From NCBI RefSeq assembly GCF_022267515.1, contig NZ_JAKFGB010000012.1, positions 893,225 through 957,224 on the forward strand: 64,000 bases of DNA. Reading direction: 5' to 3'. The notes under the pieces are model-generated. The model was not told the origin of the DNA. It worked only from the letters and a program-made list of their open reading frames with translations, and made no database searches. Position 1 is the first letter of the stretch; each line of letters opens with the position of its first letter. The position numbers and the translations under genes were made by a program. This DNA comes from Rubinisphaera margarita. GTDB taxonomy: Bacteria > Planctomycetota > Planctomycetia > Planctomycetales > Planctomycetaceae. Positions 3,529-44,756 of this stretch are shown in pieces.

Positions 3529-4550
3529 AATCAGCAGCCGTTGTGAATTATGCCCCCAAAAAGGGCTCCGTCGAGATCCGTGAGATCGATGTCCCCGAGA
3601 TCGGTGCAGAAGACGTTCTTCTTGAGGTCGCCAATGTCGGTGTCTGCGGCAGCGATCTGCACCAATGGACCGCCGATCATTCCTGGCCAGTCAACTATCC
3701 CGTCGTGCTTGGTCACGAATTCGGCGGGCATATCGTCAGGACGGGAGCGAATGTCGCCGGCTGGAAAGAGGGCGACCGGGTTGTCTCCGAAACAGCCGCC
3801 ATTATCAGTGCCGACAATCCGATGACCCGCCGCGGACTGTATAACTTGGATCCGACACGAAAGGGCTTCGGGTACGGCGTGAACGGCGCCATGACGAAGT
3901 ACGTCCGCGTTCCCTCTCGAATTCTTCATCACGTGCCCGACGATCTGCAGTTCGAGCAGGCCTGTCTCACCGAGCCGTGTTGTGTGGCCTACAACGCCGT
4001 GGTGAAGAACGCCAGCATCGAGCCTGGCGATCGTGTTGTTGTGCTCGGACCAGGAACAATCGGGATTCTCTGTGCCGCGATGGCCCGGTTGTGCGGTGCT
4101 CAGGTGGCTGTCGTTGGACTGCCACAGGATGCCCAACGTCTAGAGATCGCCCGACAGTACGGTTGCGATGTCATCATTGGCGATGCAACCGAATGGGCCC
4201 GCGAACGGGATGGTCTGGGCTGTGATGGGGTGATCGATGCCGCCGGAGCCAGTGCCACCTTGAAGATCGCCATCGACATCGTGCGGCCGGCCGGGTGGAT
4301 CAGCAAAGTCGGATGGGGTCCACAGCCGTTGAACTTCAATCTCGATCCCATGGTGCAGAAAAATGTCACCCTGCAGGGGAGCTTCAGTCACAACTGGCCG
4401 ATCTGGGAACGGGTTATCGCCCTGCTCGCCAGCGGCCAGCTCGATGTCCGTCCGATTATCGGCGGCGTCTGGCCGATTACCGAATGGCACGAAGCCTTCG
4501 AGAAAATGCATCACGGCGAAGTCGTCAAAGCCGTCCTCAAACCTGTCTGA
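3525..4550 (+). CDS. Zn-dependent alcohol dehydrogenase (MDR family, sorbitol/threonine dehydrogenase-like)
   Basis: Zinc and catalytic motifs VCGSDLH, GHEFGG; Rossmann motif GPGTIGIL. Confidence 0.8.
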   Translation: MKSAAVVNYAPKKGSVEIREIDVPEIGAEDVLLEVANVGVCGSDLHQWTADHSWPVNYPVVLGHEFGGHIVRTGANVAGWKEGDRVVSETAAIISADNPMTRRGLYNLDPTRKGFGYGVNGAMTKYVRVPSRILHHVPDDLQFEQACLTEPCCVAYNAVVKNASIEPGDRVVVLGPGTIGILCAAMARLCGAQVAVVGLPQDAQRLEIARQYGCDVIIGDATEWARERDGLGCDGVIDAAGASATLKIAIDIVRPAGWISKVGWGPQPLNFNLDPMVQKNVTLQGSFSHNWPIWERVIALLASGQLDVRPIIGGVWPITEWHEAFEKMHHGEVVKAVLKPV

Positions 4551-8478: not shown

Positions 8479-9111
8479 TTAAAACAGCGTCCGTCGCTTC
8501 TGGTTGAATTCCACAAGCACGTCCGGTCCGGCCGGATGGAGCAGGCCTGCCAGCGGTTCCCTGTCGATGACATCGGGACTCAACCAGCGGGTCTGGTCTT
8601 CAAAGCTGGTTAGAACGATCGGCATGCGGTGGTGCCCGACACTGGCGATCAGCGGGTTTGGTTCGGTGGTGAGGAACGTGTACGACTCCACCGTTTCTTC
8701 GTCGTTACGCCAGCGTTCCCACAGTCCGGCGAACGCGAATGGCTCTCCACTCGGCTGGGCGAACCAGTGCTCTTTCTCATCGAAGCGAAGAACGGGGATT
8801 AGACAACGGCGGGACTTGAAAGCGGCTCGATACGTCGGCTTTTCGTGCACCGTTTCGGAGCGGGCGTTGAAGCACTGCCGCTGGAACGATTTGCGGGACT
8901 TTGACTTCGCGGAAGGCTTCCACCATGGAGGAAGCAGGCCCCATTGCATCGGCACAAGTTCGCGTTCGCCATCGGCATCGAGACGAACGACCGGTCCCAT
9001 CGAGAGCGGGTAGAGATCCTGATCGAAGTCGTCGTGGCATTCATTGCGGACGACATCGAAGATCTCGGCGAGCATGGCCGGGCTGACATTGACGTTGTAT
9101 CGATGGCACAT
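8479..9111 (-). CDS. SOS response-associated peptidase (SRAP; YedK/HMCES family abasic-site DNA-protein crosslink enzyme)
   Basis: N-terminal MC (Cys2), and ARSETV / RRCLIP motifs. Starts 36 nt downstream of dnaE2 on the same strand. Confidence 0.85.
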   Translation of the reverse strand: MCHRYNVNVSPAMLAEIFDVVRNECHDDFDQDLYPLSMGPVVRLDADGERELVPMQWGLLPPWWKPSAKSKSRKSFQRQCFNARSETVHEKPTYRAAFKSRRCLIPVLRFDEKEHWFAQPSGEPFAFAGLWERWRNDEETVESYTFLTTEPNPLIASVGHHRMPIVLTSFEDQTRWLSPDVIDREPLAGLLHPAGPDVLVEFNQKRRTLF

Positions 9112-9147: not shown

Positions 9148-12100
9148 TCAGCTGAAGTCTCGCGACTTGCCGATGCGGGAGAATTCTTCCGACAAATCCC
9201 ACATGCGATCGACGACCACGTGCACGACCGACGACTCCCGCTGGAGAATTCCACGGACCATCATCGCGGTCGCCGTGCGAGCCGTGACGCGGAAGCGTTC
9301 CCAGGTGTTGGGATGCACGACGAGATTGGTGATGCCGGTTTCGTCTTCCAGCGTCATGAAGGTAATCCCTTTGGCGGTTCCCGGTCGCTGTCGCAACAGG
9401 ATCAACCCGGCGACTTTCACTTTGCGATCAGCGGGGTACGTTTCCAGAGCGGCGGCCGGAAGAGCTTTCATCTGTTTCAAACGCGAACGAATGAATGAAA
9501 CCGGATGGCGTTTGAGCGTCAGTCCGGTGTGACGATAGTCGTGCACCACTTCCGCCAGCGGAGCCATTCCCGGCAATGCTTTCGGAAGAGCGTCATTCGA
9601 TTGCGATTCGAGCAGGGTTTGCGTGAAACGTTCCGGCAACGATTCCCACAGCGCTTCGCGGCGGCTCAACTTGAGCGATCCAAACGCGTCGGCTCGGGCC
9701 AGTCGGGAGAGCACGCTGTTAGAAACGCCGGCCCGGTTGGCGACATCATCGATACTGAGGTAAGGCCGATCTCCCCGAGCCGCGACAATCTTCTCGGCTT
9801 CGCTCTGTTTCAGACCACTCACCATGCGGAAACCGAGCCGGACCGATCGATGTCTGGCGCTGGGTTTCTGCTCCAGTGTGCAGTCCCAGTCGCTGGAGTT
9901 GACATCAACTCGCCGAATTTCAACGCCATGCTCGCGAGCATCCCGGACAAGCGTGGCCGGCTGATAGAACCCGAGCGGCTGGCTGTTGAGCATCGCTGCC
10001 AGAAAGACATCGGGATAGTGACACTTCAGCCAGGAAGAAACATAAACCAGCAGCGCGAAGCTGGCCGCATGCGATTCTGGGAAACCGTATTCGCCAAAGC
10101 CGCGAATCTGGTTGAAGAGCCGCTCGGCAAACTCTTCGCTGTAACCGCGAGCCTGCATTCCCTGACTCAGCTTCTGATGAAAAGCATCCATCACTCCCGA
10201 CTTTCGCCAGGCCCCCATGGCCCGTCGCAATTGGTCGGCTTCGCCCGGCGTGAAGCCGGCCGCCACCACGGCGAGTTTCATCGCCTGTTCCTGAAAGATC
10301 GGTACGCCGAGTGTGCGATGCAGCACCTGCCGCACTTCTTCACTGGGATACTCGACCGCTTCCAGTCCATCCCGTCGTCGTAAATAGGGATGGACCATGT
10401 CTCCCTGAATCGGCCCGGGGCGGACCAGCGAAACTTCGATGACGAGATCGTAGAACTCTTTCGGCTTGAGCCGGGGAAGCATGCTCATCTGAGCCCGGCT
10501 TTCAATCTGAAAGACGCCGATCGTGTCGGCTCTTTGCATCATTTCATAAGTCGCCGGATCTTCCGCCGGCACTGTCGCCAGAGTCAACGGACGTTGATAA
10601 TGCCGTTCCAGAAGATCGAAGCACTTTCGCACGGCGGTGAGCATGCCGAGTGCCAGACAGTCGACTTTGAGGATGCCGAGAGCGTCGAGATCATCCTTGT
10701 CCCATTCCACGACCGTCCGTCCAGGCATCGAAGCATTCTCGATTGGCACGATCTCGCAGAGGGGACTGTTGGTCATCACCATGCCGCCCGTGTGCTGCGA
10801 CAGATGCCGGGGGAAGCCGAGGATGTCGATGACAAGCCGGTGTATCAGCTGGCCGAGACCGGAGTCCGGAGACAGCCCCGCTTCCTCCATTCGCCGGCCG
10901 ACCTTATTCACTTCGTTGTACCGTTCGAAGTTCTTCGCGAGCCGATCGATGCTGTCGAGTGAGAGTCCGAGCGCTTTGCCGACATCCCGCATCGCCGATT
11001 TGAGACGGTAGGTAATGAGCGTGGCTGTCATCCCGGCTCGTTCGCGGCCGTATTTCTCGTAGATGTACTGCAGCACTTCTTCGCGGCGTTCGTGCTCGAA
11101 GTCGATGTCGATATCGGGAGCTTCATCGCGTTCTTTGGATATGAAGCGTTCGAACAGCACATCGATGCGAGCCGGGTCGACCGAAGTGACGCCGAGGCAA
11201 TAACAGACGGCGGAGTTGGCGGCTGACCCGCGCCCCTGACAGAGAATGTCTCGGCTGCGGGCGAAGCGGACGAGATCGTACACCGTCAGGAAGTAGGCTT
11301 CGTAATGGAGCTCGGAGATCAATTCGAGTTCATGCTCGACGAGTTGTCGGACGTTGTCCGGGATGCCGTCCGGGTAACGTTCCGCAGCTCCCTGCCAGGT
11401 GAGTTCGTTCAGATACTGCGAGACCGTGAGGCCGGGCGGGCAGAGTTCTTCGGGATATTCGTAACGGAGTTCATCGAGCGAGAACTGGCAGCAATCGGCA
11501 ATGGCAGCCGTGCGACGAATCAACTCGGGATGACTTCCGAAGTGAGACTGCATCTGCTGTGGCGATTTGAGGTATCGTTCCGCGTTGGGAAACATCCGCA
11601 GTCCGAGGTCGGCGACGGCACAACGATGGCGGGTGGCGGTCAGCACATCCTGCAGGACGCGACGGCCGGGCACGTGATAGTAAACATCGTTGGAAGCGGC
11701 GGGGAGAACGCCGGCGGCTTTCGCGGTCTGCAGCTGCTCGGCCAGCAGATAGTCATCCCGATCGGTCAGATGGCGATGGGCCAGTCCGTAACAGCGATCC
11801 CCATAGAGTTCCCGGTAACGGATCAGATCGTCGACACTGCAGTTGACGGTCGACTCCGTCGGCCGGGCCAGCAGCGGGACACAGGCAATCAGATCGGCGG
11901 AGAACTCGGTCAGGTCCCGGAATCGAAGTTCACAACTCCCCTTCTCTGCCCGGGTGCGGCCGCGGGTGATGAGCCGACATAACTGACTGTAACCATTCCG
12001 GTTCATGCAGAGCAGAACAACAGGCGGAGCATCGACCGGAGTAATCTCGGCTCCAATCAGCAGCTTGAGGCTGGCCTGTTTCGCGGCCACATGAGCCCGA

Positions 12101-12336
12101 ACAACCCCGGCGAGCGTGTTGCGATCGGTGATTGCCATCGCCCGGTAGCCAAGTTCGGCCGCTCGTTCGACCAGCTCATCCGGATGCGAGGCTCCCTCCA
12201 GAAACGAGAAGTTCGACTTGCACTGCAGTTCGGCAAACGGCAGCGCGCGGTCTTCCCGCGATCCGGCCCGCTGAGCATGAATCTCGGGGTGAACCTGTCG
12301 AGCTTTCTCAAAGGCGAGTTCGGGCATTCGGGGCAA
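9148..12336 (-). CDS. dnaE2: Error-prone DNA polymerase III alpha subunit DnaE2
   Basis: 1062 aa with PHP domain and polymerase core motifs. Operon context imuA-imuB-dnaE2. Confidence 0.9.
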   Translation of the reverse strand: MPRMPELAFEKARQVHPEIHAQRAGSREDRALPFAELQCKSNFSFLEGASHPDELVERAAELGYRAMAITDRNTLAGVVRAHVAAKQASLKLLIGAEITPVDAPPVVLLCMNRNGYSQLCRLITRGRTRAEKGSCELRFRDLTEFSADLIACVPLLARPTESTVNCSVDDLIRYRELYGDRCYGLAHRHLTDRDDYLLAEQLQTAKAAGVLPAASNDVYYHVPGRRVLQDVLTATRHRCAVADLGLRMFPNAERYLKSPQQMQSHFGSHPELIRRTAAIADCCQFSLDELRYEYPEELCPPGLTVSQYLNELTWQGAAERYPDGIPDNVRQLVEHELELISELHYEAYFLTVYDLVRFARSRDILCQGRGSAANSAVCYCLGVTSVDPARIDVLFERFISKERDEAPDIDIDFEHERREEVLQYIYEKYGRERAGMTATLITYRLKSAMRDVGKALGLSLDSIDRLAKNFERYNEVNKVGRRMEEAGLSPDSGLGQLIHRLVIDILGFPRHLSQHTGGMVMTNSPLCEIVPIENASMPGRTVVEWDKDDLDALGILKVDCLALGMLTAVRKCFDLLERHYQRPLTLATVPAEDPATYEMMQRADTIGVFQIESRAQMSMLPRLKPKEFYDLVIEVSLVRPGPIQGDMVHPYLRRRDGLEAVEYPSEEVRQVLHRTLGVPIFQEQAMKLAVVAAGFTPGEADQLRRAMGAWRKSGVMDAFHQKLSQGMQARGYSEEFAERLFNQIRGFGEYGFPESHAASFALLVYVSSWLKCHYPDVFLAAMLNSQPLGFYQPATLVRDAREHGVEIRRVDVNSSDWDCTLEQKPSARHRSVRLGFRMVSGLKQSEAEKIVAARGDRPYLSIDDVANRAGVSNSVLSRLARADAFGSLKLSRREALWESLPERFTQTLLESQSNDALPKALPGMAPLAEVVHDYRHTGLTLKRHPVSFIRSRLKQMKALPAAALETYPADRKVKVAGLILLRQRPGTAKGITFMTLEDETGITNLVVHPNTWERFRVTARTATAMMVRGILQRESSVVHVVVDRMWDLSEEFSRIGKSRDFS

Positions 12337-12496
12337 TCAGTGGTGCAGGTCAGGTATTTATAAGGATGGCCCAGAGATTCATCTCTGAGTGACGAAGTCA
12401 CAAGCGGTTTGTCTTCGATCTGTTTTCAGTCAGTCCAGGTACGTGATTGCCGGCCTTTGTTGCGGGCGCGGGACTTACAGCAACGAGAGTTTTGCC

Positions 12497-12628
12497 GGGT
12501 AGCCCCGGTTGCTCCGCTACCGGGGCCGACGCAGTCGGCAAGAGGTTCCAACGATCAATTCAAATTGAAGGCGTGTTGATGGACCTCTTGTGGCTTCGCC
12601 ACCCCGGTTGAATCAACCGGGGCTACCC
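12497..12628. repeat. Nested inverted-repeat (long imperfect hairpin) element in the imuB-dnaE2 spacer
   Basis: Outer IR GGGTAGCCCCGGTTG (12497-12511) pairs with CAACCGGGGCTACCC (12614-12628). Inner IR CAAGAGGTTCCA / TGGACCTCTTG. Central palindrome TCAATTCAAATTGA. Two local hairpins share CCCCGGTTG. Confidence 0.6.
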
Positions 12629-12738
12629 CTTTGGCATGATTCATAATGTGAATTCACGAAGAGCGGTGAAGACAAGCCTCCTGTTGCTGCGCAACACAGA
12701 GATGAATCTCTGTGCCATCCCTTCGTGTCCTGCGGGGA

Positions 12739-14256
12739 TTAATCAAAGCAGCCGTGTAAGTACCAGTCGCGTTGTTCCCTTCTTCGAAAGAGCCAGAATC
12801 GCTGGTGGGTCGTGGTTTCGACGCGGTAGTAATCGCGGCGGATGGCATCGTCCCGCCACCAGCCGGTTTCAAGTCGTTCGGGGCCCCAGGTGATCTCGGC
12901 GATGTGTTCCTGTTGATCCCACCAGAACCGCAACGGCGGACCGTTCGGGATCACGGAATTCACCCGGATGGCGATCGGCTCGGAGAACAGTGACAGCGGC
13001 CGTAGCGGGCGGGAGAAGAGGGATTCGTTCTTTCGCACCGCCATCGGAGGTTCCAGAGCCGGGGTGAAACTCACGCTCCGTTCGGGCTGGACGTCTTCGA
13101 CCAGTTCCGCTTTCAAGACCGCCTGATCGCCGAGACGCGTGGTGAGTCGGTTGATGAGTGTTTCGTACTCGCGGGTTTCGATCGTCGAATCGTCTTCGAA
13201 CAACGTGCGGCGACGAAAGCGGAGCGATGCAGTTTCCGCGGCTCGCAGCACAACGCGGTCAATCTCGACACGCAGCTGCATGGTCTCCAGCTTGAGAGCG
13301 ATCAGGTTCCACAGCTCCTGCTCGGCCAGTGTGGGGCGGATTGTGCCGAGAGTCAACTCGAGTACAGGTTCCTTCCCGTTAAACAGCTGAACCTGCAGTC
13401 GTAACAGGCCGTGCTGCTGCTTCTCCAGTTGAGCCAGCAAATCCTGAAGCACCCGTTTCAGCACAATCTCGATGAGATACTTCTCGGTGATCGGATACTC
13501 GAGAACTTCATCGGTCCAGACCGGTTCGGGCAACACTTCCGGAACGAGGACTTCGGTTCGGTGACCCTGGAACTGTTCGAGTCGCGCAGGAAGTTCCTCG
13601 CCAAACCGGGGCTTCAACGATTCTCGCGGCAGCCGGAGAATCTGGTCGATCTCTTTCAGATCAAACTCCCGCAGTCGAGCGGACAGAGCGTCCGAAAGGC
13701 GCAGCGCTTCCACCGGCAGTCGTGGTGAGGACTTCTGGGAATCGACGATCTGAAAACTGTTCGAGCGATGGACGCCGTAATGAGCCACGCCCCACGCCAT
13801 GCCAACCGTATCAGCAATGGCGATGCGGCCTGCGAGTCCACGATCGTTGAGGAACGTGATTAGCTGGCGACAGAACTCTCGCTCGCTGCCATACAGATGA
13901 ATGCAGCCGGTCAGATCGAACAGCAGGCTGTCGAGCGGAGGTGTTTCTTCAATGCCGACAATGGGGCTGAAGCACTGGCAGGCGATCGCCAGTCGGCGGA
14001 GCGCGTGGTAATCGCGAGCCGGACTGGCTTCGAGAATCTGCACCGGCTGCGACCAGCGAAGTTTGGCATCGGTGAGCGGCATGCCCGTGCGGATGCCTTC
14101 CCGGGCAAGATCGGCGGAAGTCTGAACGACCACCTCGCCAACGCGGGCCAGCTTCTCGAAGAACAGCAGCGGAGTTCGTTTATGCTCGGGCTTGTCCTGG
14201 CGGTAACATTGAATGGACCAGCGGGGGAGCCACAGGCAGGCGATGCGTCTTGTCAT
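12739..14256 (-). CDS. imuB: ImuB, Y-family polymerase-like component of the mutasome
   Basis: N-terminus MTRRIACLWLPRW matches the ImuB pattern. ~505 aa. Overlaps imuA by 77 nt. Confidence 0.85.
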   Translation of the reverse strand: MTRRIACLWLPRWSIQCYRQDKPEHKRTPLLFFEKLARVGEVVVQTSADLAREGIRTGMPLTDAKLRWSQPVQILEASPARDYHALRRLAIACQCFSPIVGIEETPPLDSLLFDLTGCIHLYGSEREFCRQLITFLNDRGLAGRIAIADTVGMAWGVAHYGVHRSNSFQIVDSQKSSPRLPVEALRLSDALSARLREFDLKEIDQILRLPRESLKPRFGEELPARLEQFQGHRTEVLVPEVLPEPVWTDEVLEYPITEKYLIEIVLKRVLQDLLAQLEKQQHGLLRLQVQLFNGKEPVLELTLGTIRPTLAEQELWNLIALKLETMQLRVEIDRVVLRAAETASLRFRRRTLFEDDSTIETREYETLINRLTTRLGDQAVLKAELVEDVQPERSVSFTPALEPPMAVRKNESLFSRPLRPLSLFSEPIAIRVNSVIPNGPPLRFWWDQQEHIAEITWGPERLETGWWRDDAIRRDYYRVETTTHQRFWLFRRREQRDWYLHGCFD

Positions 14257-14944
14257 CGGTCAGGCGTCCTGTCAGTTCGTCAAAGTGCACTCGTATTTCC
14301 CGGTTTCCTTCCAGGCTCTGCACGCGTCCCTGTGCTCGTCCTCCTTCAAGTTGAATTCGTAACGGTCGTCTCTCCATCAGTCCCGATGTCGGCAACGGCT
14401 CGATCCGCAATCGGAGGTCGGCCCAGCGTGATCCGGCTGCATGAGCCGTGTTCTGCACCAGGAAGCCGAGTGTCTTCCCGGTTTCGGCGGCCAGTAGAAA
14501 CCGGCGATAAACCGTGTTCGCCTGATAGCGGGAGACATCGAGCCCCAAACAGAAGACCGCCCCGATTCCCGGACAACGCAACGCCTGCTCGGCGGCCCAA
14601 AGAGCTTCCTGCGTCGATCGCGGCCGGATAATCAGGAGCCGATCGAGCGTCCAGCCAAGGCGGAGAATGGCCGGCGGATGGAACCGGTTTCCGGGATCGA
14701 TCACCACAATCGGGCAGCCGCTCCGCAGAGTTTCAGAACTCGCCGCAAAGGCCAGTGATCCGGCCAGAGAACCCGGTTCAGCCAGCCATTCGACCAGCCC
14801 GCAAACGGGGAAACGTCCCCCCGGCAGCAGCCGGGAAAGGGCTCCCTCTTCTTCCGATCGCCCGCCGAAATCTCGCCCGGCTGTTTTGTGCAGCTGCGCT
14901 CGCAACTGTTCGAGAACCAAGGATCGGGACGTGGAGGCAGACAT
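14180..14944 (-). CDS. imuA: ImuA (RecA/SulA-like fold) mutasome component
   Basis: First gene of the cassette. Start taken at the ATG at 14944; the ORF-track start at 14968 is a TTG. Confidence 0.65.
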   Translation of the reverse strand: MSASTSRSLVLEQLRAQLHKTAGRDFGGRSEEEGALSRLLPGGRFPVCGLVEWLAEPGSLAGSLAFAASSETLRSGCPIVVIDPGNRFHPPAILRLGWTLDRLLIIRPRSTQEALWAAEQALRCPGIGAVFCLGLDVSRYQANTVYRRFLLAAETGKTLGFLVQNTAHAAGSRWADLRLRIEPLPTSGLMERRPLRIQLEGGRAQGRVQSLEGNREIRVHFDELTGRLTDDKTHRLPVAPPLVHSMLPPGQARA

Positions 14945-14960
14945 CGTGAAATATACCAAT

Positions 14961-14993
14961 ATGGACAAACGGATATAATTTGAGTTTGTCCAT
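14961..14993. promoter_or_regulatory. Perfect 10-bp inverted repeat ATGGACAAAC-N13-GTTTGTCCAT overlapping the imuA start/promoter (candidate SOS-type operator)
   Basis: Read directly from the sequence. The spacer contains a TATAAT-like segment. Confidence 0.4.
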
Positions 14994-15414
14994 CAATCCA
15001 TCGGTTGTCAACGGCACTTTCTGGAGGAAATGTGACCCGGATCACAGCCTTCCGGCACGTTTCGCGAGATACTGAAACAGTTCCGTCATCCCGAAAATGC
15101 CCTGAAAAACAGTGAGATCTCATGCGAATTGGCATTCTGCTTCCCCTGTTCATGTTGCTGCCGATCAGCAGTGTTTTCTCTTCTGAAAAGAGTGAGAAGC
15201 CGCTGCCGCCGGGCAAGCTGGGCCGAGTGGTTGAACTCGGGCGGGAGATCGTCAACCGCACCAGCGAGCATCCTCTCTCCCGGGAGTATGTCGGCAACTC
15301 GCTCAGATCGGCCTGTAAACCGGTGAGGTCCGCCGGAGTTCCGGTTGAAAAAGCACTTGCCGGAGACGGGAAAAATGGGCGTGTATAACGGAAAGGCCGA
15401 GTGATGATCTTCGT

Positions 15415-15978: not shown

Positions 15979-16857
15979 TCAGCGGACCACAAGTACTGAG
16001 CAGGGGGCGTGCCCGGCGACTCGATAGGCGACACTACCGAGCAGGAACTGTTTGATCGCCCCGTGTCCCTGATGGCCGACGACGATCAGTTCCGGTTTCC
16101 AGCGATCGGCGACCTGCAGGATCTCTTCGGAGATGTTTCCACTCTGGTGGAGTTGTGTCTCAATCGAATCGGAAACGTCGGAGAGCACTTCCTTCGTTCC
16201 ATCGAGAAACTGCTGGCAAAGCTCCACTTCCCGTTTCCACTCGGCGCTGGAGTGCTGCAAAGCATCGACATTGAACGCTTCCACCAGATGGATGACACGC
16301 ACGATGAGCAGTTCAATCCTGCAACGCCAGGGAATCTCTTTCAAAAACTGAATCGCTCGATCCGAGGGTTCGGAGCCATCGCAGGCCAGCATCACCCGCA
16401 GTGTTTCCGGACTGCGGGTTGTGTATTCAGCGGGGCGATGGAGCAACACGGGACAGGAAGAATGACGAACAACGGTCGAGGAAACACTTCCCAGAAGAAA
16501 CTTCTTGAATCCCGAGAAGCCGCGGGCTCCCAGCGCGATCAGATCCGCGTTGTCCTTACTGGCTCGAGCGACGATCTCGTGCGCCGGATTCCCCTCTAAC
16601 AGAACTTCCCAGGGCTGCCAGCCGGAACCTTTGAACCGCCCGACCGCCTGCTCCAGGTCGACACGAGCCTGATACCGAGCCGATTCCGTCAGCTTCTGCT
16701 GCAGATCCATGTTTTCGTAGCCATAAGCGGCCACGGAGGGGACGGGAACAACCGAGACAAGTTCGGTCGTCATCTCCTCGCCACGGAGTGTTTCCAACAG
16801 AAAGTCTTCGTTCGCCCGGGAATGCTCGGAACCGTCGATGCCAATCAGAAGTTTCAT
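15979..16857 (-). CDS. Universal stress protein (tandem UspA domains)
   Basis: Two USP-like halves (MKLLIGIDGSEHS...; ...LVVGHQGHGAIKQFLLGSVA). Confidence 0.8.
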   Translation of the reverse strand: MKLLIGIDGSEHSRANEDFLLETLRGEEMTTELVSVVPVPSVAAYGYENMDLQQKLTESARYQARVDLEQAVGRFKGSGWQPWEVLLEGNPAHEIVARASKDNADLIALGARGFSGFKKFLLGSVSSTVVRHSSCPVLLHRPAEYTTRSPETLRVMLACDGSEPSDRAIQFLKEIPWRCRIELLIVRVIHLVEAFNVDALQHSSAEWKREVELCQQFLDGTKEVLSDVSDSIETQLHQSGNISEEILQVADRWKPELIVVGHQGHGAIKQFLLGSVAYRVAGHAPCSVLVVR

Positions 16858-16994
16858 ACGTGTCCTGCTTTCATGGTGCCGGCGACTTGGAAGTTGATGG
16901 AATCAGTGTACCTGAAGGACCAACGGTTCCGTTCGCATAAAATGCAATCAGGCGAAAACTCGCTCATGCACGGAGACAGGTAGATCGATCCGCT

Positions 16995-17471
16995 CTAATC
17001 TTCGACAATGAGCGTGTCTCGAACGTACCGGTGGCATTCGATGCACTTCATCGTCACGTCGATCCATTTTAAAGCAGACCGGTCCAGAGAGCGATCATCG
17101 GAGGCCTTAATCAGGTCGTGGGTCACGCGTTGAAATTCGCTACTGAATTGACGGTACATCGCATCGTTGGAATAGTTCCATTTCTCGACTGTGCTCATTT
17201 TATAAAGCCGACTGGCTCCATTCCCGATGAGACGGAAGTCTTCGGTTGTCAGTCCCTCCAGAATATCTGTAGAGGCCTTGAGTTTCTCCCGCATGAAGTG
17301 CTGGAGAAGTTGATCCCCGGGAGCATCTGCAACGGGTCGTTTCGTCTCAGCCTTATTCGACTTGGGTTTAGACTCGTCAGATTCTCCCCGCAAACTGGGA
17401 CTGATAAACGCAGAAAAGAACAGGGCCGCGGCCGTGCACCCGACCAGTGTCACGAATCGTGTCTGTTTCAT
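16995..17471 (-). CDS. Secreted class II c-type cytochrome (cytochrome c'-like)
   Basis: Signal peptide. Single CIECH (CXXCH) motif 14 residues from the C-terminus of a ~130-aa helical mature protein. Confidence 0.5.
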   Translation of the reverse strand: MKQTRFVTLVGCTAAALFFSAFISPSLRGESDESKPKSNKAETKRPVADAPGDQLLQHFMREKLKASTDILEGLTTEDFRLIGNGASRLYKMSTVEKWNYSNDAMYRQFSSEFQRVTHDLIKASDDRSLDRSALKWIDVTMKCIECHRYVRDTLIVED

Positions 17472-17529
17472 CGAGGGGTTCGCTTTCTTGAAAAGGACGC
17501 AATGTGTTCAGGAAGAGTAGAACGATGAC

Positions 17530-17952
17530 TTATCGATCAACCACGGTCTCGTCGTTGCGTTCAATCTGATCGAGCCGTTCCACGAGGAGGTCGAACTCCC
17601 GCCCGACATCCACCCAGTTCATGAAAGGCGTTTCCTGGGCTCTGAGTCGCTCGACATCAACCGCGAGACGGTCAAGGAACTCCGCGTGCTGCCGTAGAAT
17701 TTGATCAAATTCGGAGGTGGCGATCGGCTCGCCGAGTTCTCTCAGGGACTCCAGTCGCTGTTCGGTGTAGACGAAGTGTTCTACCAGCCTCTGCCTCAAC
17801 TCGTCGATGCGTCGACCGAACTCCTCAAACATCGGTCCTCGGCCGAGCTCGTGAACTTCATTCCAGAACGTCGAAAGATCCTTAATCGCCGACTCGATTC
17901 TGGTTGTATCGAAGACGTCATTCGGTACGGATTGAAGGGACTTTGGTTTCAT
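17530..17952 (-). CDS. Hypothetical all-helical protein
   Basis: Coding-like composition. Lies between the response regulator and the cytochrome c' gene on the same strand. Confidence 0.4.
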   Translation of the reverse strand: MKPKSLQSVPNDVFDTTRIESAIKDLSTFWNEVHELGRGPMFEEFGRRIDELRQRLVEHFVYTEQRLESLRELGEPIATSEFDQILRQHAEFLDRLAVDVERLRAQETPFMNWVDVGREFDLLVERLDQIERNDETVVDR

Positions 17953-18183
17953 CGGTATCTCCTTTCAGGTGGTACGGCCGTGCCTCACTAGCAGGATGAG
18001 ATAGCGAGAACTGTGCGGGCAGGCTCGCGAGGGCACAGAGGATGGAAACCCGTTTCCTGACTGGAGCGATCGTAAATATAAATCTCCGAGGAGTCTGTCT
18101 GGAAACTTGCTGATGGCGTGTCGAGAAATTCGCCACACGTGGAAGGGAAGCCTGGTCCGGCTTGTCAGCAGGTGTCGGCAGGT

Positions 18184-18840
18184 TCAGCCGCGTTCGAGCA
18201 CCCACTGGGAAGCGCGGCGGGCCAGGTCGGCCATCGAATGGCAATCGAGCTTCTGCTTAATACGGGCTCGATAGGTCTCAATTGTGCTTGAGCTGAGAGT
18301 CAGCGCCTCGGCGATTTCTACAGTCGTCCGTCCCAGGCCGATCTGTTCATAGACCTGAAGCTCGCGATCGGACAGAGCGTCCTCCGGCTGGTTCTGAAGA
18401 CCGGACTGTCCCATGACCAGCCGGTGAAGCAGGGTCGACGACATCTCAGAAGAAAGATAGATCTTGTTGTCAAGTACACTCCGGATCGCGGTCACGATAC
18501 TGTCCGTAGCGGCCTGCTTGTTGATGTACCCCATAGCCCCCGCCCGAAGAGCGCGGTCGGCATAAAGATCCTCGTCGTACATCGACCACACCAGAAAGCG
18601 GACGAACTCGTTCTCTGCGCGGGCCTGGCGAATCAGGTCGAGACCGTTCCCCGATTTGAGAGAGATGTCCACCACCGCCACCTGCGGTCCCGTACGACGG
18701 ATCAACTCGAGTCCATCGGCGACATCTTCAGCTTCACCGCAAACAGTCAGATCGTCTTCCAGCGAGATCCTCGTCGCCAACCCGTCCCGCACGGCAGGAT
18801 GGTCATCAATGATCGCGATCTTTTGGGGATGTCCCGACAT
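18184..18840 (-). CDS. Response regulator, NarL/FixJ family (REC + LuxR HTH)
   Basis: REC motifs IAIIDDHP...VAVVDISL and a C-terminal LuxR-type HTH. Confidence 0.9.
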   Translation of the reverse strand: MSGHPQKIAIIDDHPAVRDGLATRISLEDDLTVCGEAEDVADGLELIRRTGPQVAVVDISLKSGNGLDLIRQARAENEFVRFLVWSMYDEDLYADRALRAGAMGYINKQAATDSIVTAIRSVLDNKIYLSSEMSSTLLHRLVMGQSGLQNQPEDALSDRELQVYEQIGLGRTTVEIAEALTLSSSTIETYRARIKQKLDCHSMADLARRASQWVLERG

Positions 18841-18858
18841 TAAGTGCCCGCCCGTCTT

Positions 18859-20751
18859 CTAAAGATTTCCTGAAGCGATCCGACATGTGACTGATGTTCC
18901 CTGCTCCGGAGCCGACTCCACTGTCAGAATCCCACCGATGCGATTGGCACGATAGTTCATGATTCGCAACCCAAGCCCACCGTCCCTTGGGTTCTGGATC
19001 CCAACTCCATTGTCGATGACCGCCAGTTCGATCGCATCGTCCGATTGCTCGAGTCGAATGATGATTCGGGACGCCGCGGAATGTTTAATGGCATTGGTCG
19101 TGGCCTCTTCGACGATCCGGTACAGCTGATTCGCAACGATGTTGTCCGGAATCGGAACTGTCTCCGGACATTGAAATTCGCAGTCAATCCCGTGAAACTC
19201 CCGGATCCGGCGAGCGGTCGCCCCCAGCGCCGCCATGAGCCCCTGGGTATCGATATCAACCGGGTTTAGGCCGCGGCTCAGAAGCCGGATTTTGGTCAAG
19301 GCTTCGCTCACGCCTCGTGATATCTTCTCGGCAATTCTGATATGGCGATTTTCATCTTTGCGCAGAGCAAGCGTCAACGTTTCGGCCAGCATCGCCATTC
19401 CGGTCAGTTCCTGTCCGACGACATCGTGCAGGTCTTGTCCAATCCGTCGTTGTTCCTCGGCTGCAATTTCGAGAACTTCTCGCTCAAGACGTTGCCGCTC
19501 GGTCGTATCCTGGCCAGTGCAAAGCAGGGCAACGATCTGGCCCGTCCGAGATGTCATGGGGACGGCTTCCCACTCAACCAGCCGTCGCTCTCCGGAACGG
19601 GTAAGAAGCACAGGACTGAATGACTGAACCGTTTGGCCGTTGATGGCTGCGTAAAACCGCCGCCGGAAAGGCTCGCGATCCGCCTCCGGCAGGAAAATAT
19701 CGGCCCACTCTTCTCCTCGCGTCTCTTCCAGCGGCCATCCGGAGAGCTCTTCCAGAAATGAGTTGTACTGCACGATCGTCCCGTCCGGAGACAGAATGAG
19801 GATCACGCCCCGGCTCGTTGCGATGATGTTCTCATTCAACTGATGCTCGCGACGCAGGGCCTCTTCATTCTGCTTTCGCTCCGTCAGGTTTCGAACGATG
19901 CCTGTAAAGAGTTTCTTGCCGGGGACCTGGCCGATGGCAATCTCAGCCGGGAATGTTCTTCCGGTCTTATGACGCGCCGTTACTTCACGACCGATTCCGA
20001 TCACCCGGGCTTCCCCCGTTTCCAGGTAACGTCTGAGATATGAGTCGTGTTGCTCCCGGTCGGGCGAGGGCATAAGGATGCTTACGTTCTGGCCAAGTAA
20101 CTCCTGCAGGGAGTAGCCGAAAATGTCCTCCGTCGCGGCGTTGGCGTCCTGAATGATGCCTCGTTGATCAATTGTAATGATGGCGTCGGCCGACGAACTG
20201 AGAATCGATCGCAGCGTGTTCTCCACGGTCTGCTTTTCGGTCTCAACTTTCTCGTAGTTCGAAACATCTTTGAGCAGTTGGACAAAGTACTTCAGTGATC
20301 CATCCGTCGCTCGAATCGGGATCAGAGTGATCTCGTTCCAGAACAGACTACCATCTTTTCGATAGTTCCGCACAACAACGCGACAGTCAATTCCTCTTGC
20401 GACTGCGGCTCGCAGCGTCGTCAGAGATCCCTGATTGCCGTCGTCCGTTTGCAGAAATCGTGGATCACGGTCCAGCAGCTCTTCGACCGAATATCCTGTT
20501 AGTTCAGCAGCCGCCTGATTGGCAAAGATGACCGGACATTCCTCCCCACGCGGCGTCGTCACAAGTAGAGCAAATTCGATTGCATCCAGAGTCCTCAGGA
20601 GATCTTCGGGAGTCGAGATCGTTTCGTCGATCAGTCTGCAAAGCAGCTGAAGAAGAGTCTCAGCATTCGCCGCGGGGTCGGTCATCGCGATCCAGTCGAA
20701 ATTAGCAGGGCGCAGAATAAGTCCGCTCAGATTATAGGCGTCAGGCATCAT
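18859..20751 (-). CDS. Multi-PAS sensor histidine kinase (HisKA_3 + HATPase_c)
   Basis: Several PAS repeats, an H-box (LHDVVGQEL) and an ATPase G-boxes region near the C-terminus. Confidence 0.9.
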   Translation of the reverse strand: MMPDAYNLSGLILRPANFDWIAMTDPAANAETLLQLLCRLIDETISTPEDLLRTLDAIEFALLVTTPRGEECPVIFANQAAAELTGYSVEELLDRDPRFLQTDDGNQGSLTTLRAAVARGIDCRVVVRNYRKDGSLFWNEITLIPIRATDGSLKYFVQLLKDVSNYEKVETEKQTVENTLRSILSSSADAIITIDQRGIIQDANAATEDIFGYSLQELLGQNVSILMPSPDREQHDSYLRRYLETGEARVIGIGREVTARHKTGRTFPAEIAIGQVPGKKLFTGIVRNLTERKQNEEALRREHQLNENIIATSRGVILILSPDGTIVQYNSFLEELSGWPLEETRGEEWADIFLPEADREPFRRRFYAAINGQTVQSFSPVLLTRSGERRLVEWEAVPMTSRTGQIVALLCTGQDTTERQRLEREVLEIAAEEQRRIGQDLHDVVGQELTGMAMLAETLTLALRKDENRHIRIAEKISRGVSEALTKIRLLSRGLNPVDIDTQGLMAALGATARRIREFHGIDCEFQCPETVPIPDNIVANQLYRIVEEATTNAIKHSAASRIIIRLEQSDDAIELAVIDNGVGIQNPRDGGLGLRIMNYRANRIGGILTVESAPEQGTSVTCRIASGNL

Positions 20752-39834: not shown

Positions 39835-41472
39835 TTACAGTTCGACGGCTTCGACTTCCTTCACGAAGCGGCTTTCGTCACCGGACAGGAATCCACTCAC
39901 GACGTTGAACACGGCGTCACTGAAGCCGCCGATGTTCAGGATGTCGCTGCGTTCTGGAGCCTGTGAGGTTCCGTACGGCTGGATGTCGATGCAGACCAGC
40001 TTTGGTCCCGTGATGTCGCCACCCTGGAGTCGCAGCTGATTCTTCACGAAGTCCTGCCATTCGGTCATCACTCCGGTTGACCCGTAAGCTCCGTATCCGA
40101 AGGCCTGTCCGTTGCGGATCCAGCTTTCGTTATCGCTGATCAGCACGCATCCTGCGAAACGTCGATTACGATAACGGCTGTTGGCTTCTCGCAGCGGGAT
40201 CGAACAATCGGTCCCTCCTCCGCCCATTTGGCCGAGCCGCTTCGACAGACTCAGGATCGAATCGGACGGATCGAGCCGTGCGTCGTACGCGATGGTATCG
40301 AACGGCACGAGCACACTGTCCGGGTTTCGACGCAGGATCGCCGCAGCGAACAGAGCCGCCACATCGACACATCGCACGGCCGAAGTTCCCCCTCCACCGC
40401 GGTATCCGGTGACCGGACAGTTCATCGATCCCGAGGTATCGAGTCCGATTACGACCGGTCCCGGCAGTTCCGGGATGTTTCCGCAGGCAATCTCGGCTGC
40501 TCGGTGCAGCGCATCCCGGATCTTATGCGGCAACTCCGTCGACGCGTTCAGGTAGGCGGCCAGGTACTGGTACGGGAACTGTCGCGAACGTCGGATCTCC
40601 GTCGCATCGGCCACGCGGCCGGCCACGTAATCGACCATCTCACGATCTTCCAGAACCTGATGACGCAGGAGCGTATTCAGGTTCATTCGCAATGCCTGCG
40701 GCCCCATCTGTCGGGCGATGGCCTTCCAGACCTTCGGCCCCCGAGCGGCATCGGCCAGGAGATCCCAACGCACGTTCAGATCAGCCGCGACTGCAGCCTG
40801 ATCCTTCTCGCCGGTGATGCGTCGATACTTGATCAACTGCTTCAGGTCCTGCGGGAGATCGGCTTCGGTCGCCGGAGCCCACTTCTCGACGTCCTTATCG
40901 GTCAACCATCCGAACAGAGCCCGCCGCGCGTTGTCTCGCGGAGTTGGCCGAGCCAGCCGCAACACGTCGCGCAGACTTGGATCGTTCCCGATCGAAGCCG
41001 ACAGCAACTTGCTCACGGAAGCCTCGTTCAGCCAGCGCTGGAAAGCCCGCTGCAAACTCGACGACAGGCTGTTCCGACCAAACTGACCGGAACGGACCAT
41101 CTGGAACAGCGTCCGCAGGACGCGGCCGTTATCGATCACCCGATCAAAGACCTGGTGCATCAATGCGGTATCCCGAGTCGACAGCGAAGCCACCAGGGCA
41201 GCCGGCATGTCCTTCATGAAAGCCCGTTCCCGCGAATACACGGCGAGCTTTGCCAGGAAGACATTGTCATCGACCTCGTCGATCAGAGACCGCAAGGTAT
41301 CGAGCTGCGTCTGGGCGTTGGCGTAGAAGACTCCGTTAAAGCACCCGGTTGCAGCGAGCTGAGCGAGAGCCTGCTTGGCCGAGAACTTGTAAGCGGCGCC
41401 GCCCGCTTCGTTGATCGAGTTCGTACGCGGCAACAGATTCTTGAAGTTGGAGAAGAGGGACTTGTTGGCCAT
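39835..41472 (-). CDS. rsr: Ro60 ortholog Rsr (TROVE domain + vWA/MIDAS)
   Basis: N-terminal TROVE-region sequence typical of bacterial Rsr. C-terminal vWA with the motif IGLDTSGSM. Confidence 0.85.
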
Positions 41473-42010: not shown

Positions 42011-42211
42011 GCTATGTCTTCAAAAGTGGCTCGACGAAGAGGTGCCGAGAAGATGCGTTCTTCACGCAATCCTTAACAGGGATGTAATCCCGGCTGGCAG
42101 TCGAACCACTGGAGCAGTTCACTCTCGTAACCGTTCCGTCCGCGAAAGGAGCAGCGTTTCAGGCGAAACAAAGCTCATTCGCGGACATCCGGTAAAGCGA
42201 TCCGCTTTAAT

Positions 42212-42282
42212 ACCCCGCCAAGGAATCGAACCTCGTCCGACTGATTCGAAGTCAGTCATGCATCCATCACACCCGCAGGGCT
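42212..42282 (-). tRNA. tRNA-Arg (UCG), 71 nt, no encoded CCA
   Basis: Acceptor GCCCTGC / GCGGGGT (two G-U pairs). D-arm GTGT-GATGGAT-GCAT. Anticodon arm ACTGA-CTTCGAA-TCAGT. T-arm CGAGG-TTCGATT-CCTTG. Confidence 0.6.
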
Positions 42283-42291
42283 TGCAGAGTT

Positions 42292-42624
42292 TCAGTTTTT
42301 CGTTGTTCTCCAATACTCGTCGGCGTTCTCCAGAGCCGCCCGCATCAGACGGGATCCTTCGATGTTGGCCGAGTGAATTGTCCAGGTTAGTTGCGATAAC
42401 TCGCCGTAGTAGGCTCGTTCTTCAATCCATTTCGCGACGTCGTAACCGGTTTGCGTTGTTCCCAGATCGTGATCCAGTGACACCCAGGCGACGTTGTTCG
42501 ACTTGAGCCGACTGATCGCCGCATCTGCAGTCCTCACCCAGATCATGCCCGGTTCCGCACCGAACAGTTCCTGGATCTTCCGATTGTTCGGATCCCGCTC
42601 GTCATCGAGCCAGAGATTGATCAT
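42292..42624 (-). CDS. Small receiver (REC)-fold-like protein embedded in the tRNA array; possibly a cyclic-phosphate-processing receiver-like domain as seen in RNA-repair neighbourhoods
   Basis: AAAGGA Shine-Dalgarno sequence 5 nt before the ATG. Alternating beta/alpha pattern with acidic residues at predicted strand ends: MINLWLDDER (strand 1) and VAWVSLDHDLG (strand 3). Confidence 0.5.
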   Translation of the reverse strand: MINLWLDDERDPNNRKIQELFGAEPGMIWVRTADAAISRLKSNNVAWVSLDHDLGTTQTGYDVAKWIEERAYYGELSQLTWTIHSANIEGSRLMRAALENADEYWRTTKN

Positions 42625-42651
42625 GCAGTCCTTTCTTCAGGTCGCGAGAAA

Positions 42652-42721
42652 CACGAGCGTGAGGAGTCGAACCCCATGCGTTCGCTTTGGAGGCGAACTG
42701 CTCTCCCAGGAGCACACTCGT
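42652..42721 (-). tRNA. tRNA-Trp (CCA), 70 nt, slightly irregular (short D-loop, missing nt 9)
   Basis: Acceptor ACGAGTG / CGCTCGT. D-arm GCTC-CTGGGA-GAGC. Anticodon loop CTCCAAA is identical to bacterial tRNA-Trp. T-arm TGGGG-TTCGACT-CCTCA. Confidence 0.55.
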
Positions 42722-42725
42722 CCAA

Positions 42726-42799
42726 TGGCTTTGGTGGGATTCGAACCCACAGCATCGCTGTGTCTGAGACAACGTGGTCTACCGATTGCCTACAAAGCC
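42726..42799 (-). tRNA. tRNA-like element with a CAG anticodon loop (Leu-like) but an unpaired D-stem and no long variable arm; probable pseudo-tRNA
   Basis: Perfect acceptor GGCTTTG / CAAAGCC and T-arm GTGGG-TTCGAAT-CCCAC. Anticodon arm GTTGT-CTCAGAC-ACAGC. No D-stem pairing can be found. Confidence 0.4.
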
Positions 42800-42831
42800 G
42801 TTTCGTGCCCACTGTTGTTGAGGGACATCAG

Positions 42832-42906
42832 TTGCGGCGGCAGGAATCGAACCTGCGTCAGAACGGTTCAGAGCCGCCCGCCCGTACCAGCACGAGCACC
42901 ACCGCA
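42832..42906 (-). tRNA. tRNA-Gln (CUG), 75 nt
   Basis: Acceptor TGCGGTG / CGCCGCA. D-arm GCTC-(10 nt)-GGGC. Anticodon arm GGCGG-CTCTGAA-CCGTT. T-arm GCAGG-TTCGATT-CCTGC. Confidence 0.55.
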
Positions 42907-42918
42907 TCATCTCTTCAA

Positions 42919-42989
42919 AGCGCCCAGCGGGAGTCGAACCCGCACTCCCGCCATGGCAAGGCAGCAGGCTACCGCTACATCATGGGCGC
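42919..42989 (-). tRNA. tRNA-Gly (GCC), 71 nt
   Basis: Acceptor GCGCCCA / TGGGCGC. D-arm ATGT-AGCGGTA-GCCT (one mismatch). Anticodon arm CTGCC-TTGCCAT-GGCGG. T-arm GCGGG-TTCGACT-CCCGC. Confidence 0.55.
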
Positions 42990-43013
42990 GATTCAGAGGC
43001 TTCGCCTCCTGAA

Positions 43014-43086
43014 TGGGATCGGACGGATTCGAACCGTCACCGTTCCGGTTAAGAGCCGGACATGCCGCCGCTAACACCTCAATCCC
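43014..43086 (-). tRNA. tRNA-Lys (CUU), 73 nt
   Basis: Acceptor GGGATTG / CGATCCC. D-arm GTGT-TAGCGGCG-GCAT. Anticodon arm TCCGG-CTCTTAA-CCGGA. T-arm GACGG-TTCGAAT-CCGTC. Confidence 0.65.
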
Positions 43087-43110
43087 AGGTTGACCTTCTT
43101 CGTAATAAAG

Positions 43111-43183
43111 TCGGGATGGCCGGACTCGAACCGACGATCGCGTGCTCCCAGGGCACGTGGGGTAGCCGCTCCCCGACATCCCG
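43111..43183 (-). tRNA. tRNA-Pro (UGG), 73 nt (C at position 33)
   Basis: Acceptor CGGGATG / CATCCCG. D-arm GGGG-AGCGGCTA-CCCC. Anticodon arm CGTGC-CCTGGGA-GCACG. T-arm GTCGG-TTCGAGT-CCGGC. Confidence 0.6.
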
Positions 43184-43397
43184 TTAACTGCTTTCACTTA
43201 ATGGAGCTGTAAACTCCGAGTAACTCTCGATCGAAAGCGGTTGAGTTCTTTGCTGAGTGCCTGCCGGCATTAGCCTGTCCGCGTTCGATCGGAGCCGGGC
43301 GGAATGCATGTCCGAAGAAGGCGAAGAAACGTCGATACGAATTGCGGATGAAGGTTGTCACGGTCGTCGATTCCGAAATGGGCTGACTGTTTACTGA

Positions 43398-43470
43398 TGA
43401 CCCGTGTGGGATTCGAACCCAACCTGACCAGCTTGAAAGGCTGGTGACCTCACCAGAAGTCGAACGGGCC
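43398..43470 (-). tRNA. tRNA-Glu (UUC), 73 nt
   Basis: Acceptor GGCCCGT / ACGGGTC. D-arm GACT-TCTGGTGA-GGTC. Anticodon arm CCAGC-CTTTCAA-GCTGG. T-arm TTGGG-TTCGAAT-CCCAC. Confidence 0.65.
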
Positions 43471-43985: not shown

Positions 43986-44756
43986 ATGGACACGAGCATT
44001 CAGCGGAACCCGGTTTATCAGCAGCTGAACGATCGATTGCGCTCGGCCCTGGCCGCCGAGTATCAGTCCGGGGATCGCTTTCTGACCGAACGTGAAATCA
44101 GCGAGAAGTTCCAGGTCAGCCGGGCGACCGCCAACAAGGCGCTCGCCAGTCTCGTTTCAGAAGGCCTGCTCGAGTTTCGTCGCGGCATCGGCACCTTCGT
44201 CCGCCGCGATCTCATCGACTACGATCTCCGTTCGCTGGTCAGCTTCACAGAGAAAGCCAGGGCGGCTGGCAAGAAGCCGAAGACAACCGTGCTGACGTTC
44301 CGGCGACTTGAAGCCGGGACGATCGACTGCGAGATTCGCGAGGCTCTCGAGCTCGACTCCGATGAGCGCGTCTGGGAGCTCGAACGATTGCGGCTGGCCG
44401 ACGGTGTGCCCGTCATTCTGGAGCATCGTTACGTGGTTACCAGTTTCTGCCCGAAACTGACTCGAACACAGGCGGCCGGCTCTCTCTATCAGGCATTGAC
44501 TGGCCCCCACGGAATTGAGATTGCGGGAGCCGATGAAGTGATTCGAGCCGTGCTCCTCCCCCGAAAAGAGGCGGCGTTGCTTGAAGTCACTGCGCGTGCA
44601 CCGGCTTTCGAAGTGACGGCCGTTGGTTACACGAAGGACGCCCGTCCGCTCTGGTGGGAGCGGACCTTGTATCGGGGCGATCAGTATGAGTTTCACAGCC
44701 GGCTCGGTCCGGTTCGTTCCGCGACTCCCGCTCGCGGACAACTCCGTTCGCATTGA
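43986..44756 (+). CDS. GntR/HutC family transcriptional regulator (wHTH + UTRA domain)
   Basis: Start at MDTSIQ. HTH segment EREISEKFQVSRATANKALASL. Confidence 0.8.
   Translation: MDTSIQRNPVYQQLNDRLRSALAAEYQSGDRFLTEREISEKFQVSRATANKALASLVSEGLLEFRRGIGTFVRRDLIDYDLRSLVSFTEKARAAGKKPKTTVLTFRRLEAGTIDCEIREALELDSDERVWELERLRLADGVPVILEHRYVVTSFCPKLTRTQAAGSLYQALTGPHGIEIAGADEVIRAVLLPRKEAALLEVTARAPAFEVTAVGYTKDARPLWWERTLYRGDQYEFHSRLGPVRSATPARGQLRSH

Follow-up and report, generated by a model that had tools for sequence, protein, structure and literature searches.

Stress-induced mutagenesis is driven by cassettes of error-prone polymerases, which nearly always stand under tight damage-responsive repression. 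Non-LexA or non-canonical DNA-damage regulators include PafBC in mycobacteria, DdrO/RDRM in Deinococcus and DriD in Caulobacter. In the CIRCE/HrcA operator (TTAGCACTC-N9-GAGTGCTAA) and the BirA operator of bio (40 bp), near-perfect inverted repeats of 9–12 bp that stand 9–16 bp apart lie over the promoter or the transcript start and bind a dimeric repressor. LexA boxes at imuA-imuB-dnaE2 promoters, both those of Verrucomicrobia (PMC4951493) and those of the planctomycete type described below, are palindromic and lie over the core promoter of the operon, where their expected role is repression until DNA damage occurs. The LexA motif of Verrucomicrobia is TGTTC-N4-GAACA (PMC4951493). The E. coli motif is stated not to be the one used by LexA in planctomycetes (PMC3108266), the SOS response was considered undocumented in the PVC superphylum, Planctomycetes included, by the 2016 paper on Verrucomicrobia (PMC4951493), and we found no published planctomycete LexA motif in the literature. 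[quoted passage not shown]

The analyses presented here concern a stretch of 64,000 nt from Rubinisphaera margarita (hereafter the window, or the 64 kb window) that contains an imuA operon with a palindrome of similar position and expected role but of different build, and they yield two leads. One is a conserved TAC-N4-GTA box at related loci, very probably the LexA box of planctomycetes; the other is that the R. margarita window is without this box and carries a quite different palindrome over the imuA promoter.

LexA-type boxes at related loci

The comparison set comprised 80 metagenome loci and several genome loci around related imuA genes; the nearest relatives of R. margarita ImuA are only about 40 % identical to it. 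Some 30 of the 45 closest loci share, at 20–300 nt ahead of imuA, a strongly conserved box of the form [G/T]RTAC-N4-GTA[C/T]A, its palindromic core being TGTAC-N4-GTACA (box-bearing imuA loci: L003, L004, L006, L011–L014, L016–L026, L028, L031, L033, L035–L039, L044, L049, L057, L069, L202, with the box at 9871, and L207, with the box at 9961). Examples are TGTACgggtGTATA at the locus that encodes the ImuA of Maioricimonas sp. JB045 (a name taken from the protein match) and GGTACgcatGTACA at the imuA locus of a Pirellulales MAG. In 17 distinct sequences the box sits within a promoter of the form TTGAC[A/G]-16/17-TA[C/T]A[C/G]T, over its spacer and -10 element.

Related palindromes of 5-N4-5 build also stand before lexA itself. 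In Fuerstiella marisgermanici (L209), where lexA is followed by an ImuA-sized ORF, imuB and dnaE2, TAATACatttGTATTA stands 52 nt before lexA; TAATACaattGAATTA precedes lexA in a Planctomycetaceae MAG, and other lexA-imuA loci carry TATTCatttGAATT and AGCACgtttGTGCT (the palindromes of the lexA promoters lie at 2934–2949 in L209 and at about 2940–2955 in L210). Taken over the lexA and imuA genes of planctomycete-related loci, the LexA-type boxes read TGTAC-N4-GTACA, TAATAC-N4-GTATTA, TATTC-N4-GAATT and AGCAC-N4-GTGCT, all of them with a 5-N4-5 geometry. Because [G/T]RTAC-N4-GTA[C/T]A precedes both lexA and imuA and resembles TGTTC-N4-GAACA of Verrucomicrobia (PMC4951493), we suggest that this sequence is very probably the LexA box of planctomycetes.

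The related loci showed two further features. Eleven of 32 related imuA promoters have a GCTAGC hexamer 16–46 nt 3′ of the box, where chance would give about 0.4 (for example at about 454 in L003, 270 in L011, 2842 in L012, 254 in L013, 2974 in L025 and 9995 in L207); it often lies within GCTAGCATG at the imuA start, and many of the promoters that bear it also have CCGATA(TCC) a few nucleotides 5′ of TTGAC. Neither element is present in the R. margarita promoter. At 3590–3745 of the F. marisgermanici locus, in the interval that separates lexA from the following ORF of the cassette, one long inverted repeat is nested in another: the outer arms (CTTAACTGGACAGCGCCA and TGGCGCTGTCCAGTTAAG) are about 100 nt apart, and a second long hairpin (GGGGTAACCCGATGCGTAAGCGAGGGAT...ATCCCTCGCTTACACTTCGGGTTACC) lies between them. 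An attenuator or a terminator might explain this structure, as might a small mobile element within the SOS operon.

The imuA operon of R. margarita and its predicted promoter

The gene downstream of the palindrome had been called imuA in the first-pass annotation, and both family matches and NCBI protein matches bear this out: it heads an operon in the order imuA-imuB-dnaE2-SRAP, all on the minus strand. The imuA gene (14180–14944) encodes 254 aa from an ATG start; its product matches NCBIfam ImuA_translesion (E 1.3e-23, under the curated cut-off) and is 100 % identical over 254 aa to the NCBI entry ‘ImuA family protein [Rubinisphaera margarita]’. Since the NCBI protein agrees with the ATG at 14944, and since M1 is nearly invariant across the homologue alignment, we take this ATG to be the start of imuA, with 16 nt between it and the end of the palindrome; an alternative TTG start, which had been placed at 14968 inside a palindrome arm, does occur at that position. 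The imuB gene (12739–14256; 505 aa, with a Y-family/IMS domain, Pfam IMS E 2.2e-10) overlaps the 3′ end of imuA by 77 nt. The third gene, dnaE2/imuC (9148–12336), matches NCBIfam PRK05672, ‘error-prone DNA polymerase’, with 1425 bits (cut-off 939) and also has Pfam domain matches, its ORF being taken from a TTG with the family match starting at residue 32. The gene for the SOS-response-associated peptidase (SRAP; 8479–9111, Pfam PF02586, E 2.3e-41) follows 36 nt after dnaE2 in the same direction. No other recognizable SOS gene (lexA, recA, uvr or further ones) was found in the 64 kb window.

Within the operon, the gap between imuB and dnaE2 (12337–12738, minus strand) is unusually long, at about 400 nt, and non-coding. 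It contains perfect hairpins at 12502–12526 (GCCCCGGTTGC/GCTACCGGGGC), 12602–12622 (CCCCGGTTGA/TCAACCGGGG) and 12695–12714 (CACAGAGAT/ATCTCTGTG), and has no Rfam match; a structured RNA, regulatory sequence internal to the operon or debris from repeats could each account for it. On the other side of the palindrome, an ORF of 88 aa (15122–15388, plus strand) diverges from imuA; its N terminus resembles a signal peptide, it matches no family and, judging from its translation, it may be the truncated remnant of a larger secreted protein.

Upstream of the operon lies a cluster of stress/hypoxia type (15979–20751, minus strand), which encodes a tandem-domain Usp, a CxxCH-containing protein, a NarL-type response regulator and a triple-PAS histidine kinase, together with a protein that was judged hemerythrin-like by eye and has no family match. 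The nearest regulators to the palindrome are those of this stress-type cluster; we found no candidate regulator gene near the palindrome itself, and no regulator of the HTH-S24, PafBC, DdrO or DriD type was identified in the 64 kb window. A DosR-like link (GGGAC-N4-GTCCC) to the Usp/PAS kinase/NarL cluster was considered and rejected: the intergenic regions of the cluster hold no such boxes and no related palindromes, and the DosR core GGAC-N4-GTCC is absent from 15979–20751, its sole match in the window being at 44636. Farther away, an array of eight short tRNA-like genes (Arg, Trp, Leu, Gln, Gly, Lys, Pro and Glu; 42211–43470, minus strand) adjoins a homologue of Ro60/TROVE (Rsr; 39835–41472, minus strand). 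Six of the eight reach the Rfam threshold for tRNA (42–53 bits) and the other two are uncalled by Rfam; the ‘tRNA-Leu’ has just 74 nt. In bacteria, the usual neighbours of Ro60 genes are Y RNAs that carry tRNA-like modules.

On the imuA strand, the region before the gene reads TTGACA-accgatggattgatgga-CAAACT-caaatta-TATCCGTTTGTCCAT-attggTATATTtcacg-ATG. By analogy with the TTGAC[A/G]-16/17-TA[C/T]A[C/G]T promoters of the 17 distinct related imuA sequences, TTGACA (15006–15011, minus strand) would be the -35 hexamer and CAAACT (14983–14988, minus strand), 17 nt 3′ of it, the -10 hexamer; from the positions of these hexamers, transcription would start at about 14976, inside the palindrome spacer, and the palindrome would cover about -17 to +16. 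A strict sigma-70 scan called no promoter at imuA. Since the GCTAGC element of the related promoters is missing here, detailed homology to them is doubtful and the TTGACA analogy may be a coincidence. An alternative -10-like hexamer, TATATT (14950–14955, minus strand), in itself a good -10 sequence, stands 5 nt before the ATG; with this as the -10 element the imuA mRNA would be leaderless, and the palindrome would lie over the spacer and the -35 region. In both models, themselves predictions, the palindrome would overlap core elements, and under either of them RNA polymerase would be blocked by a protein that occupied the two arms. The TATAAT-like segment bracketed by the arms, on which the first-pass annotation had relied, is on the wrong strand for imuA: TATAAT (14974–14979) is present on the plus strand only, opposite to imuA. 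It could serve ORF 15122–15388, in which case a single operator could govern both directions.

The palindrome and its distribution

On the plus strand of the R. margarita window, positions 14961–14993 read ATGGACAAAC GGATATAATTTGA GTTTGTCCAT, and the perfect 10 bp palindrome with an N13 spacer reported there at first pass agrees with the sequence: the two 10 bp arms are complementary at 10 of 10 positions, so that all 20 arm positions pair, the spacer has 13 nt and the whole spans 33 bp. The arm nearer to the imuA ATG (14961–14970, ATGGACAAAC on the plus strand) would correspond to about +7 to +16 of the predicted transcript; the spacer GGATATAATTTGA (14971–14983), which reads TCAAATTATATCC on the imuA strand, has A or T at 10 of its 13 positions; and the arm farther from the ATG (14984–14993, GTTTGTCCAT on the plus strand) overlaps the predicted -10 hexamer. 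The half-site centres are 23 bp apart, and N21 separates the TGGAC/GTCCA cores. A direct repeat, GATGGA-tt-GATGGA (14989–15002 on the minus, or imuA, strand; TCCATC on the plus strand at 14989–14994 and 14997–15002), makes up, together with the ATG-proximal arm, three copies of ATGGA, two direct and one inverted.

Perfect inverted repeats as large as this one are not rare in themselves. The window contains four with arms of at least 10 bp and a spacer of at most 20 nt, against 1.76 ± 1.35 expected from first-order Markov simulations of the window, and two of these four sit just 3′ of gene ends. The unusual aspect of the palindrome is its position over the predicted imuA core promoter, and this position exceeds chance, since the probability of such a repeat in a core-promoter zone of about 60 nt is about 0.002 (1.76 × 60/64000, a post hoc estimate). 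The specific sequence ATGGACAAAC-N13-GTTTGTCCAT has a single match in the 64 kb window with up to three mismatches allowed and no match in 100 shuffles, and a relaxed search of the window (up to six mismatches, spacers of 8–18 nt) brought up no credible relative.

Outside the window, the palindrome was absent from about 85 related imuA loci, and a scan for perfect palindromes upstream of 70 related imuA genes revealed nothing alike. One sequence, GGACAAACTTTGTC in the related locus L006, was dismissed because it lies about 290 nt downstream of the canonical box of that locus, within an ORF. The 16-base core GGACAAAC-N13-GTTTGTCC, which is too permissive a pattern, gave terminator-like hairpins and an alphaproteobacterial MAG repeat among the matches listed in genome contigs, and the two planctomycete matches among those listed have no recognizable SOS gene adjoining them; R. 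margarita was not represented among the matches listed. The 18-base core had one match in viral contigs, inside an unrelated AT-rich stretch, and the palindrome showed no plasmid similarity. As to the repeat in the alphaproteobacterial MAGs (MFD00392, MFD03975 and others; loci L081, L086, L091, L107, L121, L134, L140 and L150), it has the form GGCACTTAGC-GGACAAAC-cgaccgcctc(t/c)ga-GTTTGTCC-GCT... and recurs many times in each genome; by its appearance a family of REP-like repeats, it shares the 8 bp arm core by chance and is unrelated to the palindrome.

These frequencies bear on whether the palindrome has arisen by chance in an AT-rich promoter region and has no specific function, the operon being controlled elsewhere or not via the palindrome, which we regard as rather unlikely, if well worth weighing. 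The finding of four such inverted repeats where 1.76 are expected per 64 kb, the uniqueness of the palindrome in the window and its conservation in no related locus are all consistent with chance, as is the distance of the nearest ImuA proteins (about 40 % identity), which would leave the promoter free to drift; the probability of about 0.002 for the core-promoter zone and the pairing at 20 of 20 arm positions argue against it, and so does the absence of the relatives’ operator from this promoter, given which some regulatory site is to be expected.

That absence is apparent from a search with the LexA-type box of the relatives. The window has no copy of the core with up to one mismatch, and the best score of the box PWM anywhere in it is 9.4 bits, against 14.7–24.2 bits for true sites. 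Within the imuA promoter the best match is TATCCGTTTGTCCA (14962–14975, minus strand), with 5.0 bits against the same 14.7–24.2; it ranks 8 of about 128,000 window positions, is composed of the spacer end and one arm, and has C in place of the A residues of position 4 (A in 30 of 32 sites) and position 12 (A in 32 of 32 sites). The match might go back to an ancestral box, or it might be coincidental. The clade’s LexA operator was thus rejected by sequence, given the 5.0 bits in the imuA promoter and the absence of a core within one mismatch from the window, and a LexA operator of the published build was rejected by geometry also, as a 33 bp site with centres 23 bp apart compares with about 11–18 bp for published motifs (PMC8565304). 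The earlier statement that the palindrome matches no known LexA box type therefore extends to the planctomycete-type [G/T]RTAC-N4-GTA[C/T]A; judged by its sequence, the palindrome is different from every LexA motif compared, in half-site sequence as in geometry.

A LexA operator of a new type would call for a LexA, or a paralogue, with changed specificity for ATGGACAAAC-N13-GTTTGTCCAT, and the motif should then also stand before recA, lexA and other SOS genes. We consider this unlikely, although cassettes of the imuA-imuB-dnaE2 type are well-known targets of LexA, whose motif differs widely from clade to clade (PMC4951493, PMC8565304). The sole hint of kinship is that TGGAC/GTCCA is one base per half from the relatives’ TGTAC/GTACA, to which the rank of the weak relic TATCCGTTTGTCCA by the box PWM may be added. 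Against this, all LexA-type boxes in the planctomycete-related loci compared are of the 5-N4-5 kind and the longest published motif quoted is GGTT-N10-AACC, in a paper according to which LexA targets motifs with a rigid spacer (PMC8565304), whereas the palindrome has a core spacing of N21 and arm centres 23 bp apart. Two LexA protein searches returned many planctomycete LexAs; none was named Rubinisphaera among the best 120 relatives of the Fuerstiella LexA, which reach down to 46 % identity.

The palindrome could also act in RNA, as a hairpin in the imuA 5′ UTR (10 bp stem and 13 nt loop, with a transcript start upstream of 14993) that affects mRNA stability or translation. The predicted minimum-free-energy structure does include the 10 bp stem, which ends 16 nt before the AUG; yet the fold energy has z = -1.2, with 29 of 200 shuffles as stable, the start codon is not sequestered, no Rfam match in the region exceeds the gathering thresholds, and under the TTGACA-17-CAAACT model the transcript would start in the loop, so that one arm only would be transcribed. 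A regulatory hairpin is accordingly quite improbable in our estimation, and a structured RNA element was rejected on the same z value and the same Rfam result. An intrinsic terminator was likewise rejected, the loop having 13 nt and the stem G-C at 4 of 10 pairs, with no T run on either strand; the terminator scan was silent at the palindrome and gave its only terminator-like matches at 15152–15174, outside it.

Last, the palindrome might be the scar or recognition site of a recombination event or a mobile element, for instance the border of an inserted mutagenesis cassette. ORF 15122–15388 beside the promoter, perhaps a truncated remnant as judged from its translation, is in keeping with this; the lack of a counterpart at the far end of the operon or elsewhere in the window, the lack of a G+C shift across the operon, and the results for plasmids (no similarity) and viral contigs (one match, in an unrelated AT-rich stretch) all tell against it, and we hold it to be very improbable indeed. 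A repeat or mobile element (REP, MITE or IS end) was rejected given the single copy in 64 kb and the lack of a plasmid match, and a horizontally acquired island given that the imuA operon is without G+C anomaly.

A candidate operator in place of the LexA-type box

Considering these alternatives together, we give about an even chance (roughly 0.5) to the palindrome being the operator for a dimeric repressor of the imuA operon which functionally replaces the LexA box of the relatives and which binds a protein that is probably not canonical LexA. Since the relatives’ imuA promoters have a LexA-type box and that of R. margarita has none, the palindrome would be the replacement; since the half-sites are 10 bp long with centres 23 bp apart, the binder is probably not canonical LexA; and since a mutagenic operon is expected to be regulated, a regulatory site of some kind should exist at imuA, where the usual operator is missing. 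The perfect 10+10 bp, the sole copy in the window and the overlap with the predicted core promoter support the operator reading, and it is weakened by the lack of a second copy in 64 kb, of a regulator nearby and of conservation, by the weak hexamers, and by the occurrence of about 1.8 such repeats per window by chance. The first-pass proposal of an SOS operator at the position of a damage-responsive repressor site holds up as regards position, the palindrome overlapping every plausible core-promoter element; for the SOS part, nothing beyond that position ties the palindrome to LexA or to DNA damage.

In the mechanism that we propose, the two-fold symmetric palindrome would bind a sequence-specific dimeric (or dimer-of-dimers) repressor over the imuA core promoter, and the bound repressor would keep the mutagenic imuA-imuB-dnaE2-SRAP operon off until a signal, most likely DNA damage, removes it. 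The palindrome would in this way be a functional substitute for the LexA-type box that is missing here. What is observed is the sequence itself, its single occurrence in the window, the genes around it, and the box that relatives conserve and this window lacks; the hexamers of the promoter, the binding of a protein, the repression and its release by damage are inferred.

Compared with the described systems, such an operator would share with the LexA boxes of imuA operons its palindromic nature, its place over the core promoter of the same operon and its expected role, and would differ from them in build: LexA boxes have arms of 4–5 bp around N4, whereas the palindrome has 10 bp arms, a 13 nt spacer, another half-site sequence and one copy in the window. 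HTH-S24, PafBC, DdrO/RDRM and DriD are precedents for damage control of this kind, including that of translesion polymerases, but none of their motifs resembles the palindrome in sequence or geometry. In its architecture of long arms and a long spacer the palindrome resembles the CIRCE/HrcA operator and the BirA operator of bio; these have other sequences, regulons and signals, and are conserved in many genes and species, in contrast to a palindrome with a single copy in one species.

Finally, should the palindrome be unique and inert, it would be a mere curiosity. If it is an operator, it would mean a regulatory rewiring of a mutagenesis operon and would be a pointer to a new regulator. We tentatively suggest, as a possibility that is on balance doubtful, that the imuA operon of R. 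margarita has been uncoupled from the LexA box of Planctomycetota and placed under a different repressor with widely spaced 10 bp half-sites (ATGGACAAAC-N13-GTTTGTCCAT). If this uncoupling is true, the phylum, for which we found no SOS characterization in the literature, would have a new regulator that responds to DNA damage or stress.
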